Notes under the pieces: model-generated
The model's database searches: none
What the model saw: the letters and a program-made list of their open reading frames with translations, nothing else
Told to the model about the DNA's origin: nothing
Shown here: one piece after another, positions 18,116 to 54,750 of the stretch
How positions within the stretch are numbered: the first letter of the stretch is position 1
How the letters are laid out: each line of letters begins with the position of its first letter
Position numbers and translations under genes: made by a program
DNA from: a virus
Reading direction: 5' to 3' (one strand)
Virus record (IMG/VR): IMGVR_UViG_3300028423_000861
Coordinates: 64,001 to 128,000 of that record
Length of the DNA: 64,000 nt

Positions 18116-18162
18116 AAATAAGCCTTTTAACTGTATACTTATTTATGTTAATAAGATGGAAA

Positions 18163-19040
18163 TAGTGAGATTACCTAAATTTCCGCGGTTGCCTTTGGAC
18201 CGTACCGTAAACCTTGCGAGTCTACGTTAATCCGTTATCCACTAAGCGCCTTTCAGCTGACTTAGTATCAACCAGTGCTGCCTAGTTTAAAGTGGTGGCA
18301 TTTCCACTATCGTTACACGCTACTCGTCCTTTGATCTTCCGCCTGCCTTGCGAGCAGTTCAGAGTCGCTAAACCCTTACGTCTTCTCTCCGAACAAACAC
18401 TTCCGCCTTGCGAGCTTCCATGCACGACATTCACCGTAGTGTGTCGTATTAAGCACCTTTAACGTGCAACTGAGGCAGTCTTTGCGTTTTTGCTATAATG
18501 CATCTGCAGGATTTGAACCCACACATTCAGTTCCTAAAGACTGACGCTCTACCATTGAGCTAAGTTGCTAACCTACCAAGACGTGCTGCCTCTTGTTGCT
18601 TCGCATCCTTTTGGGAAACGAAATACAACACGCCTAAATGCCTTTCTCCTTGCGGGATACTAAACGTCTTTTCAAGTATCCAGCTACCTCACTAGTCGGT
18701 AACTCTCAACTTTAAAGATAACAAGTTGCCCTCCTGCGCGAACAGTCGGACTATTTGTTTACCCGTTAACATTCTGTCTTCGCTAGATTGGAGTGCATAG
18801 CTTTGGCTCCCACCAAATTGTAACCTCGCCGGTTGGCCCTGGTTACTATCCTTTCGGGCATTTGCTCTAGCTTAGGACTTACCTCGCTCTTCACAAGGGG
18901 TGCGCTACGGCTTATAGGAATACATCCGTCTGCCACCTAGTCCGGGCTTGCGTAAATGGACCATTGCTGGCGCAAGTGCGTAGGCTTCCTTGCTTTGGCA
19001 GTGTTACCACTGTTATCCTCCTGGACGTCACGCCGCCCAT
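18163..19040 (-). ncRNA. GOLLD-like giant structured RNA
   Basis: ~880 nt without a long ORF; repeated CTCGCAAGG loops; GTGTTGTATTTCG..CCAAAAGG..GAAGCAAC, AAAGGTGCTTAA and 3' GTAATCTCA, recognised from memory of GOLLD; 5' end uncertain. Confidence 0.75.
18500..18568 (-). ncRNA. degenerate tRNA-like domain embedded in the giant RNA
   Basis: TAGCTCAATGGTAGAGC D-arm, TCAGT/ACTGA stem with 8-nt loop, GGTTCAAATCC, no CCA. Confidence 0.7.
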
Positions 19041-30854: not shown

Positions 30855-30944
30855 TGGCGGAGGGCCCGAGAATCGAACTCGATGCGCTTTCACGCACAAT
30901 CGGTTTAGCAAACCGTTCCAGGCACCAGCCTGATTGTACCCTCC
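30855..30944 (-). tRNA. tRNA-Ser(GCU)
   Basis: loop TTGCTAA, long V-arm. Confidence 0.88.
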
Positions 30945-30962
30945 AGGTATTCATATTTATTT

Positions 30963-31052
30963 TGGCGGATAGGGTGGGAGTCGAACCCACACGACGCTTT
31001 AAGTCCTAACTGATTTCAAATCAGCGGCCACCTCCAATTGGCTTGCCTATCC
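30963..31052 (-). tRNA. tRNA-Ser(UGA)
   Basis: GCTGA-TTTGAAA-TCAGT. Confidence 0.9.
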
Positions 31053-32545: not shown

Positions 32546-32624
32546 TGGTAGCCCCAGCGGGGTTCGAACCCGCACCCTCTGGCTTGAGAGGCCAGCGTCC
32601 AGATGCCACTTAGACCGTGGGGCC
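32546..32624 (-). tRNA. tRNA-Glu(CUC)
   Basis: CTGGC-CTCTCAA-GCCAG. Confidence 0.9.
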
Positions 32625-32732
32625 ATTCGACATGAAAATTTTTTCATGTCTTATACAGGACTGTTTGTCCATCTGATGCACTGTTGGAGTCACCGGAGTG
32701 AACACGCTCGCTCGTTGCTCTCGTGGGGAAAT

Positions 32733-33652: not shown

Positions 33653-33728
33653 TGGAGGCGTAGGAAGGACTCGAACCTTCATAAAACCGGGTTGCAGCCG
33701 GTGACGTCGCCGTTCCGCCCACTACGCC
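33653..33728 (-). tRNA. tRNA-Cys(GCA)
   Basis: ACCGG-CTGCAAC-CCGGT, U73. Confidence 0.9.
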
Positions 33729-36835: not shown

Positions 36836-36922
36836 TGGTGCTAGCTGAAGGATTCGAACCTTCGACGGGCAATCGCCAACGGCTTACAAGACCGTTCCCT
36901 TCGTCCACTCGGGCAAGCTAGC
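36836..36922 (-). tRNA. tRNA-Thr(UGU), long V-arm
   Basis: ACGGT-CTTGTAA-GCCGT. Confidence 0.85.
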
Positions 36923-37261: not shown

Positions 37262-37348
37262 TGGTGCTAACTGAAGGATTTGAACCTTCGATGGGCTTGT
37301 GCCAACGGCTTACGAAACCGTTCCCTTCGTCCGCTCGGGCAAGCTAGC
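37262..37348 (-). tRNA. tRNA-Thr(CGU), long V-arm, duplicate of 36836-36922
   Basis: near-identical body, loop TTCGTAA. Confidence 0.85.
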
Positions 37349-40602: not shown

Positions 40603-40685
40603 TGGAGCGGATAGGCGGAATCGAACCGCTTGCTCACAGCTTGGAAGGCTGCTGATAACACCAGTTACCATGAAGCTCTACCCGC
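40603..40685 (-). tRNA. tRNA-Gly(UCC), altered D region
   Basis: loop CTTCCAA, U73. Confidence 0.8.
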
Positions 40686-41667: not shown

Positions 41668-41755
41668 TGGAGGACCGGGTGGGATTCGAACCCACGATGG
41701 GCTTGCGCCACTGGATTAAAAGTCCAGTCTCTTCGACCGCTCGAGTCACCGGTCC
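41668..41755 (-). tRNA. tRNA-Lys(UUU), long V-arm
   Basis: CTGGA-CTTTTAA-TCCAG, V-arm TGGCGCAAGCCCAT. Confidence 0.87.
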
Positions 41756-46261: not shown

Positions 46262-46411
46262 CTAGTCTCTTGCACCCTCCCCAATAGGCTCAAAGCGATC
46301 TCCATCGAGGCGTGACTGCATAATGCCATAATTCAACGCCCAGCTTTGTTCGCTGGTATTCAGACCTTTGACGGCCTTGTTGAATATGATATGTGACATT
46401 GTTGTTTGCAT
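46262..46411 (-). CDS. 49-aa attenuator leader peptide
   Basis: ATG..TAG between promoter (TTGACG-17-TATGTT, 46471-46499) and terminator; last codons GGAGGGTGC complementary to the terminator 5' arm. Confidence 0.7.
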   Translation of the reverse strand: MQTTMSHIIFNKAVKGLNTSEQSWALNYGIMQSRLDGDRFEPIGEGARD

Positions 46412-48062: not shown

Positions 48063-48148
48063 TGGAGTTGCGGGCGAGAGTCGAACTCGCTAGGTGTTAG
48101 CCTGCCTTGGATTTGCAATCCAGCCCCTTACCGTCCGGGCCCCGCAAC
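48063..48148 (-). tRNA. tRNA-Cys(GCA), long V-arm
   Basis: loop TTGCAAA, U73. Confidence 0.85.
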
Positions 48149-48184
48149 ATCTGCCAGGAGTTAAAACTCCTGGCATTTGGGTGT

Positions 48185-48301
48185 TTAACCGCCCCAACCT
48201 TCAATGGCGCTTTCGCGACATGAACAGTCAGGACCACATTTGCATGATTCACCACATGGGCAAACATCAAGCAAACTGTCTCTATAACCTTCTCTAAACA
48301 T
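48185..48301 (-). CDS. 38-aa Cys-rich (metallothionein-like or leader) peptide upstream of tRNA-Cys
   Basis: AGGAG RBS, CPCGESCKCGPDCSC, hairpin 48152-48175 before the tRNA. Confidence 0.7.
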   Translation of the reverse strand: MFREGYRDSLLDVCPCGESCKCGPDCSCRESAIEGWGG

Positions 48302-49103
48302 GTTAGTCTCCTGTTGCTGGCTATTTATCAGCAACATCATTATGATGCATTTTGATATGATGCATTTTGATAAAGAATTTGTCAACTGTTATTTGTTATA
48401 CTCGGTAAGTTCTTGATCACCAAATGCTAGCTTGAACATAGTGGCATGTTCAGGGTTGCTAAATCCCAAGGTAAAATCATTACCGAACTTGCTGAAAATT
48501 TGATATTCATGGCTACTGGTATTATCTTGTAACCATTCAATGGTCTTTGCAAAATTAAGTTCATTCAACAAAAACAAATCTCTAGGAACGCGAGTCCAGA
48601 GTATTTGTTTTGCAATGCGACGCGGGTTGAGTGAACTAATATTTTTAAGCCCCAAGGCATGTTTTTCGATTTTAGTTGCTGTCATGTATCCAAGAGACTG
48701 CGACTTACATTTAACTTCAATAACATATTTGGATAAACATTTGTTCGTCGGAGACAAAGGACTCGGTTTAAAAACGACCTTGATACTAGGAACACTTTCC
48801 GAAAAATCAAATGGATTATCAGTCAGTCCATACATATCACAATACATTTTTTCGATAAACCGTGATGTTTTTTTATAATACATTTTGAGTGGTGGATAAC
48901 CACTACCAAAAATAGAATCTAGGCGTTTTGTAGGAATCCGGATTTCATAAGACATGTTATTATCAGATGTTACTCTTTTTCTTGGATTTCGCTTTTTCGG
49001 AAAATTTTTCTTTTTTATACTAGAGGACCTTGTAAAAAGATCCTCTAGTTGTTTTTCACGCTCACGTGCTCTTTTGAGAGCGTTGTGAACCCACTGTTTT
49101 CGA

Positions 49104-54138: not shown

Positions 54139-54425
54139 TATGGAGGGATTCTGTTTCTAGGCTCCCTCCGGGCCCAGCTGATTATGCCGCTAGGGCAACC
54201 TCAGCAGGTGCTGCGTTTGTGTTTGCAGTTATTAAGATGCGACTATTTCGCGTTCGCCTCCGACTAACTCCACTTCCCTACAACGTGCATCGATCCTATG
54301 TCGCCCCCATCAAAACATTACTTGCTGTTACACTATGGCCATTAACCTATTTGGTCACAAGTAACGTTATGGTGGAGGCGTCCGGTACTGCCCCGGAGTC
54401 TACTACGCTTTCAAGTTGCTTCCTC
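54139..54425 (-). ncRNA. ssrA: circularly permuted two-piece tmRNA; tag ANTNAAPAEVALAA (54182-54226)
   Basis: acceptor piece ends CGCCTCCACCA at 54370; hairpin spacer; coding piece starts GGGGGCGA at 54308. Confidence 0.92.
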
Positions 54426-54750
54426 GTTAGCATGTTTATTTATACAGAAATCCCAGGGCATTGTCAACTGATTTGCAAACGGAAGTAGACAAGAACCACA
54501 GTCATAATCATCTTGTACAAGTCTTTCAAGTAATTCCTCTTCAGTTGCATAATCTTTTGTGCTAATGCCCCTGCATTGACATATTATCATTTATTGAATC
54601 CATTCAACTTCAACGTTAGTGCTGCCACCACCACGCAAAAATCTCTCACTGCTTGATCCGGTCGCATAAAATTCAGGTTTATAAGGAAGTCTAGAAATAA
54701 CGTTGGCACCCATGCCATTAATTCTCCGTTATTGTTGTATTTATATGGTT

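Follow-up and report, generated by a model that had tools for sequence, protein, structure and literature searches.

Organization of the locus

The window, the whole stretch of 64,000 nucleotides analysed here, corresponds to bases 64001-128000 of a 142-kb uncultured virus record with an estimated completeness of 60%, and has a G+C content of 41.6%. Its minus strand carries nearly all of the genes and at least 44 tRNA genes, and all features of the unit described here lie on that strand. The unit is composed of a sigma-70-type promoter-like site overlapped by a tandem repeat, a hairpin in the 5' untranslated region (UTR), a gene encoding a 38-residue cysteine-rich peptide, a second, perfect hairpin and a tRNA-Cys gene with a long variable arm, and it is flanked by genes for a 256-aa protein and a predicted membrane protein (Table 1). 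The stop codon of the peptide is followed by 9 nt, the perfect hairpin, 3 nt and the tRNA-Cys. No promoter-like site separates the ORF from the tRNA in the window or in the related loci L003 and L010. The ORF, hairpin, tRNA and tandem repeat all lie where the original prediction had placed them, including the perfect hairpin that it described 3 nt before a long-arm tRNA-Cys.

Table 1. Positions of the features of the peptide/tRNA-Cys unit, of features elsewhere in the window and of equivalent hairpins in related loci.
Feature	Position	Strand	Remarks
256-aa protein gene	ends at 48389	-	5' neighbour of the unit
Promoter-like site, sigma-70-type, TTGACA-17 nt-CATCAT	48385..48357	-	10/12 matches
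15-mer, perfect tandem duplication over the -10 region	48341-48355 and 48356-48370		100% identity
5'-UTR hairpin, 8 bp	48336..48312	-	inverted repeat; GTTG..CAAC stem, ATAAATA in loop
Shine-Dalgarno sequence AGGAGA	48312..48307	-	5 nt before ATG; 3' arm of the UTR hairpin runs into AGGAGA
Cys-rich peptide gene P0001, 38 aa	48301..48188, stop 48187-48185	-	core CPCGExCKCGPxCxC
Perfect hairpin	48175..48152	-	11-nt arms, 100% complementary; sense strand without U tract
tRNA-Cys(GCA)	48148..48063	-	U73, encoded CCA, long variable arm; Rfam tRNA 39.9 bits
Predicted membrane protein gene, 112 aa	47711..48049	-	conserved, synteny anchor; 13-nt gap after tRNA-Cys
49-codon leader ORF	46411..46262	-	~2 kb from the unit
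Canonical tRNA-Cys	33653-33728		ARAGORN
UTR hairpin in relatives	L003 3963-3988; L015 1785-1812; L018 262-283
Stop-codon hairpin in relatives	L003 4119-4151; L010 5089-5120; L018 377-416; L020 271-317		last codons and 3' UTR

Conservation of the unit in related phages

The peptide and the neighbouring membrane protein served as queries in searches for relatives, and the contigs that were then fetched yielded six further lineages. The search for peptide homologues used a 66-aa reading of the ORF and an alignment headed by the 44-aa peptide. The lineages have a gene order in common, in which an RNaseH-like gene and an unknown gene precede the unit and the membrane protein and a 330-380-aa gene follow it. 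Peptide homologues comprise P0002, P0003 and unannotated ORFs in L018, L015 and L020, and the six peptide-bearing lineages, which are related uncultured jumbo phages, share the layout of promoter, UTR hairpin and Shine-Dalgarno sequence. Loci L003/L009 (a 332-kb contig), L010 and L018/L019 contain a promoter, a UTR hairpin, a peptide gene of 44, 33 or 31 aa and a hairpin with a U tract, followed by a long-arm tRNA-Cys, a canonical tRNA-Cys a few nucleotides further on and a fresh TTGACA promoter for the membrane protein gene. L020 encodes a 39-aa peptide with nine cysteines, followed by a hairpin and a long-arm tRNA-Cys. In L015/L016 the peptide has 24 aa and five cysteines, and a canonical tRNA-Cys of 75 nt lies 13 nt from the end of its ORF (8 nt past the stop codon); the locus has neither a hairpin nor a long-arm tRNA. 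The closest relative, L014, whose membrane protein is 70% identical to that of the window, carries the long-arm tRNA-Cys (96% identical) directly after a promoter-like site and is devoid of the ~230 nt that span the repeat, the UTR hairpin, the ORF and the perfect hairpin. Separate losses of the ORF, of the hairpin and of the long-arm tRNA have occurred among the relatives.

The check that accompanied the original prediction, namely synteny in relatives, was run, and tRNA-Cys adjoins the peptide gene in 6 of 6 peptide-bearing lineages, lying directly 3' of every demonstrable homologue found. Homologous peptides unlinked to tRNA-Cys were sought as well, and there were none among the demonstrable homologues. 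The proposal that ORF, hairpin and tRNA-Cys form a separate unit is thus upheld by synteny that is kept in six related phage lineages, but all of the peptide/tRNA-Cys pairs sit in one syntenic block and are therefore not independent events. Searches of cultured phages with megablast and blastn returned no relative of the region or of a tRNA-Cys of the window type, a search for related loci with the 256-aa neighbour protein found nothing, a profile of the membrane protein had the L003 lineage as its sole match in viral and metagenome collections, and a strict back-translated pattern of the peptide core gave no additional viral contigs. A second tRNA-like stretch with a CCA end and a GCA-containing loop lies just 5' of the membrane protein gene in L020 (686-757); neither ARAGORN nor Rfam gave a match to it.

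Promoter region and 5' UTR

Promoters in the relatives combine TTGACA with TATATA, TATAGT or TATAAA and occupy the same place as the site in the window, and TTGACA occurs 105 times on the coding strand of the genome, where 44 occurrences would be expected. The original prediction had noted that a tandem 15-mer overlaps the promoter region and had suggested that it may be an operator. The repeat and its overlap with the TTGACA-17-CATCAT site are both borne out, but the 15-mer is absent from L003, L010, L015, L018, L020 and L014, so an operator role draws no support from conservation; judging by these loci, the duplication is a lineage-specific event. An equivalent of the UTR hairpin, with different inner stem pairs, is present in five of the six peptide-bearing lineages, and the hairpin has a single occurrence in the genome of the window phage. 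It could stabilize the 5' end of the mRNA or hold a late promoter of the T4 type. A T4-type late promoter (TATAAATA) in the loop was considered and could not be confirmed, the motif being mildly enriched (13 versus 8.5 expected), which is not decisive.

In the relatives, stretches that score below threshold against bacterial RNase P RNA (26.9 and 37.9 bits) are located in the intergenic space just 5' of the peptide promoter (L003 3621-3841, L010 4508-4713 and the start of L020). An RNase P-like RNA at this position was rejected as a candidate feature: the matches are below threshold, were not reproduced on a shorter stretch and are absent from the window phage fragment.

The cysteine-rich peptide

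Cysteines occupy residues 14, 16, 20, 22, 26 and 28 of the 38-aa peptide and are encoded by both TGC and TGT, in agreement with the six in 15 codons that had been reported initially. With a mean Cys content of 0.98% in the ORFs of the phage, such a cluster has a probability of ~4e-9 per position and is far from chance; Cys codons make up 16% of the whole peptide message. The peptide gene is conserved, and selection acts on its protein product. Six peptides have the core CPCGExCKCG(P)xCxC in common, some of them also share end motifs, and across 11-13 core codons pS is 0.46-1.03, near saturation, versus a pN of 0.07-0.23. The non-Cys core residues P, G, E, K, G and P are conserved despite synonymous change, and this purifying selection is not needed by a sensor that relies on Cys codons alone. 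It is extremely improbable that the ORF is a chance open frame in the leader of the tRNA. Such a frame would be short and would match no family library, as is the case here, but it would not be expected to have homologues with a strong Shine-Dalgarno sequence in six lineages, a pN far below pS or the observed density of cysteines.

The original prediction offered a phage metallothionein as its alternative reading, and this is now the best fit, given the selection at the protein level, the spacing of the cysteines and the occurrence of the same module in a secreted bacterial protein. The cysteines form three CxC pairs, and their CxC-x3-CxC-x3-CxC spacing is identical to that of residues 6-24 of a sea-urchin metallothionein domain (1QJL), which was also the sole match in the PDB, with a non-significant E value of 2.3. 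In ESM embedding space, the named clusters closest to the peptide are four metallothionein families (scores of 0.76-0.78), a proximity that is a lead only. Among the features that define metallothioneins, the peptide has the small size, the high Cys content and the CxC motifs, and departs from them in its aromatic residues and in the absence of a Pfam profile match. The aromatics (F2, Y6 and W36), atypical of classical metallothioneins, all lie outside the Cys core. Pfam gave no match to the peptide at E values up to 1, no PHROGs family matches it, and the phage homologue P0003 was the single match in a phmmer search of 1.84 billion representatives. An AlphaFold model calculated without metals has a pLDDT of 54, in keeping with a fold that depends on metal.

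The Cys module is also found outside the unit. A 74-aa secreted bacterial protein (L021 220-444), encoded immediately 5' of an ECF sigma factor gene, contains two copies of it; 13 of 19 residues are identical to the peptide module (pairwise E of 4e-8, database-level E of 0.64), and no tRNA was found near the gene. A relaxed core pattern, CPCGExCxC, occurs on 33 contigs in unrelated viral proteins, none of them beside a tRNA-Cys; their homology is unproven and they are therefore not counted as unlinked homologues. The secreted bacterial and unrelated viral cases show that the Cys module works at the protein level, but do not prove homology. One of the viral cases, a 53-aa peptide with 15 cysteines that includes the sequence CPCGEECKC, is encoded on a 436-kb IMG/VR contig (L027 4701-4862), with no tRNA-Cys within the 12-kb locus.

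Hairpins between the peptide and the tRNA

The perfect hairpin of the window has a predicted stability of -17.9 kcal/mol and is the most stable fold among the upstream regions of the 44 tRNAs in the window, in which nine perfect hairpins of at least 10 bp occur versus 0.37 in simulations. On the sense strand it is followed by GAU and then by the tRNA, and the lack of a U tract sets it apart from canonical intrinsic terminators. Another perfect hairpin that likewise has no U tract (32629-32650, minus strand) lies 4 nt before a tRNA-Glu (CUC) at 32624, and in view of the 3-4 nt gap and the absence of a U tract in both cases the design looks generic rather than Cys-specific. Bacterial RNase P prefers U at position -1 of its substrates, and this base is found at -1 in 37 of the 44 tRNA leaders of the window and in all seven tRNA-Cys leaders.

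Hairpins with U tracts lie between peptide and tRNA in L003, L010, L018 and L020. The tRNAs in these four loci are placed between a terminator-like hairpin and the next promoter, so that they would be made by read-through only. This placement, as far as it can be judged from sequence, has the anatomy of a regulated unit; it is the one feature that still argues for regulation and counts against the interpretation that we prefer below.

The same four loci have a further hairpin at the stop codon, involving the last codons and the 3' UTR, which is more stable than in shuffled sequences in L003 (z = -3.45) and L010 (z = -2.6) and weakly so in L018 and L020 (z = -1.8 each). Its arms change along with the C-terminal codons between L010 and L018. 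It can be asked whether the peptide has a dual use, binding metal while its translation also tunes the output of tRNA-Cys, or the fate of its own mRNA, through structures at the stop codon. Such a role would accommodate both the selection on the protein and the terminator anatomy of the relatives, as well as the stop-codon hairpins themselves. We hold it to be unlikely, as the stop-codon hairpin is absent from the window (z = -0.5) and no switching logic is visible, there being no overlap between the stop-codon hairpin and the arms of the terminator.

Test of the attenuator reading

In the original prediction the Cys-rich ORF was read as a Cys-sensing leader. Scarcity of Cys-tRNA, caused for example by a host nuclease, would slow ribosomes at the six Cys codons, alter the hairpin or terminator and raise read-through into the tRNA-Cys. 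The order of promoter, Cys-rich ORF, hairpin and tRNA-Cys with no promoter in between is that of such a system, as are the U-tract terminators at the same place in L003, L010, L018 and L020 and the linkage that is kept in every peptide-bearing lineage. Polycysteine uORF attenuators are known in mycobacteria (10.1101/834739), and the main tRNA array of the same phage is headed by an antiterminator-bearing leader, the 49-codon ORF of Table 1.

Antiterminator pairing was assessed in five lineages by comparing the best duplex of the ORF and spacer with the 5' arm of the terminator against 500 codon-shuffled versions. No complementarity beyond chance was found, with the fraction of shuffles that were as good being 0.71, 0.27, 0.31, 0.16 and 0.73. 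The 49-codon leader served as a positive control, giving -15.9 kcal/mol versus -9.2 +/- 2.0 and a fraction of 0.002, so that the test has power and the Cys unit is without an antiterminator. In addition, the last Cys codon lies 30 nt before the stop codon, from where a stalled ribosome cannot reach the hairpin. Thus, in the window, the unit lacks three of the four features by which a leader-peptide attenuator is defined: it has a codon-rich ORF with a strong Shine-Dalgarno sequence, but neither a U-tract terminator, nor an antiterminator, nor conservation restricted to the regulatory codons. The relatives point the same way, as the same tRNA would be expressed without the ORF in L014, where it stands behind a promoter-like site with neither ORF nor hairpin, and L015 has no hairpin of any kind. 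Leader-peptide control is therefore an improbable account of the locus, also in view of the purifying selection on non-Cys residues. That Cys is the only amino acid missing from the 49-codon leader, as the original prediction had noted, is correct (the other 19 are present) but carries no information, since with 0.98% Cys a 49-aa protein would be free of it with a probability of ~0.62.

There is a variant that dispenses with a classical antiterminator, in which the ORF and the hairpin or terminator would act as a ribosome-based gauge of Cys-tRNA that gates read-through into an altered, possibly nuclease-resistant class-II tRNA-Cys. We see this as decidedly unlikely; if it were true, the phage would replace an attacked host tRNA only when decoding slows.

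The long-arm tRNA-Cys

ARAGORN missed the tRNA-Cys of the unit, which exceeds the Rfam gathering score of 29. It has the anticodon GCA, a U discriminator, an encoded CCA end and a 16-nt variable region with a 3-bp stem. Among the six long-arm copies the variable regions are 12-16 nt in length with stems of 2-4 bp and differ in sequence by lineage, two of them being capped by GAAA; a variable region of more than 10 nt that forms a stem-loop is the hallmark of class II tRNAs. The cloverleaf fold is conserved, with 96.7% of stem cells paired in the six copies and compensatory changes in 11 of 20 pairs, distributed over four stems; pair 28:42, for example, is U:A, G:C or C:G. None of the shuffled controls reached the observed pairing, which falls to 37-53% in slid controls. 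No copy deviates in the anticodon loop, U73 or CCA, and the acceptor, D and T arms are identical in the window, L014 and L003, in which the neighbouring proteins are just 45-70% identical.

The copies all pair fully in the 7/5 acceptor/T fold. For the alternative 8/4 fold, G8 could pair with C65 only in the type found in the window, L014 and L003, while the U8 of L010, L018 and L020 cannot. The D stem has 3 bp and is not Sec-like. Except for the inserted arm, the L010 copy can be aligned over its full length with ordinary phage tRNA-Cys genes of 75 nt, and the long arm is accordingly an insertion into a tRNA-Cys body. The main determinants for CysRS are U73 and GCA (PMC5389517), and SerRS needs G73 together with its long arm (PMC7609411), so that charging with cysteine is likely from the tRNA sequence. 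No CysRS gene was found in the phage fragments examined.

It could be argued that the long-arm tRNA-Cys is itself the selected element, for example an isoacceptor that escapes host tRNA-targeting nucleases, and that the peptide gene is an unrelated neighbour. The tRNA is nearly unchanged between phages whose proteins have diverged, and in L014 it persists where the ORF has been lost; the window phage carries Thr and Lys tRNAs with long arms next to canonical ones, and evasion of tRNA-targeting defences by phage tRNAs is known (PMC10264068, PMC11555353). As an explanation of the whole unit we give this very little weight, as it accounts neither for the conservation of the peptide gene itself nor for its constant adjacency, and it is compatible with, rather than exclusive of, the interpretation that we prefer.

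Other unusual RNA genes are present on the minus strand of the window. Long variable arms also occur in two copies of tRNA-Thr and in a tRNA-Lys, 87-88 nt in length (36836-36922, 37262-37348 and 41668-41755), with isoacceptors of normal length adjoining them. Matches to the tRNA-Sec model are located at 30859-30944, 30967-31052 and 40607-40685, the first with 53.4 bits versus a gathering score of 47. Allo-tRNAs and 8/4-type tRNAs have been described in alphaproteobacterial phages (PMC5389517), and the matches may represent tRNAs of these kinds. A GOLLD RNA at 18162-18636 (Rfam 181.9 bits, above gathering) contains a tRNA-like gene (18498-18569) in which ARAGORN reads a four-base anticodon. A two-piece tmRNA (54139-54488, 105.8 bits) is of the permuted, alpha-proteobacterial type, a hint of an alphaproteobacterial host.

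Proposed function of the unit

We consider it probable that the unit is a gene for a metallothionein-like peptide that is co-transcribed with a class-II-type tRNA-Cys, that RNase P frees the tRNA and that the hairpin marks or protects the 3' end of the mRNA. An early promoter would drive the small Cys-rich gene, and the six cysteines of its product most likely hold a metal-thiolate cluster. The peptide mRNA and the tRNA-Cys would form one early transcript, from which a cut by RNase P at the 5' end of the tRNA would release the tRNA-Cys and leave an mRNA ending in a hairpin of 10 bp plus 3 nt, which would protect it from 3' exonucleases. In the relatives, the U-tract hairpin would double as a leaky terminator, halting transcription in part. 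That peptide and tRNA-Cys are adjacent would then reflect an inherited gene order with at most a supply benefit, in that Cys-tRNA would be made beside a message with 16% Cys codons in a phage whose Cys usage is otherwise 1%.

Several points count against this proposal. The protein subunit of RNase P contacts leader positions -4 to -8, and a hairpin just 3 nt from the cleavage site could hinder the enzyme. The peptide has no Pfam or PHROGs match, its AlphaFold model is uninformative and three aromatics lie outside its core.

The peptide adds a conserved, unannotated metallothionein-like micro-gene to the repertoire of jumbo phages and prompts one to ask what use a phage would have for the buffering of metals or thiols. 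The tRNA is a cysteine tRNA that fits the standard (7/5) fold, with a class-II-type arm that is strongly constrained across a phage clade, which bears on the rules of tRNA identity and on the evasion of tRNA-targeting defences by phages. The literature covered by our search contains no description of a phage metallothionein or of a 7/5 long-arm tRNA-Cys. The locus also illustrates that a codon-rich mini-ORF 5' of its cognate tRNA is not sufficient to call an attenuator, as a simple antiterminator test separates the Cys unit from a true leader 2 kb away.

Comparison with known systems

Attenuators of the trpL, hisL and pheL type, and the mycobacterial polycysteine uORF (10.1101/834739), likewise place a short codon-rich ORF 5' of a gene of the same pathway, and in four relatives of the Cys unit a terminator lies in between. 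The unit differs from them in having neither an alternative antiterminator pairing nor, in the window, a U tract, in the selection on the peptide sequence itself and in its downstream gene, which is a tRNA and, judging by L014, one that would be expressed without the ORF.

The selC* tRNA-Cys of anaerobic bacteria (PMC5389517) has in common with the phage tRNA U73, the GCA anticodon and a long variable arm. The phage tRNA, in contrast, fits the standard 7/5 fold, an 8/4 alternative being possible only in the type found in the window, L014 and L003; it has a normal D arm and is phage-borne, and neither a selB*/cysS* partner nor a CysRS gene was found in the phage fragments examined.

Metallothioneins such as the sea-urchin MTA domain (1QJL) and the small fungal Cu-thioneins are similar to the phage peptide in their small size and in their high Cys content, 16% in the phage peptide; the CxC-x3-CxC-x3-CxC spacing forms part of 1QJL, and the named clusters closest to the peptide in embedding space are those of metallothionein families. 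No sequence match reaches significance, however, and the putative metal-binding peptide is phage-encoded and has conserved non-Cys termini with aromatics.

Transcripts containing both an mRNA and a tRNA that are cut by RNase P, with a 3' stem-loop stabilizing the upstream message, are found in bacterial mixed operons and in the tRNA region of phage T4. Compared with them, the 3-nt distance between hairpin and cleavage site is unusually short. The Cys unit resembles these transcripts in the common orientation of gene, hairpin and tRNA, in the lack of an internal promoter and in the U at position -1, and by analogy it may be processed in the same way.
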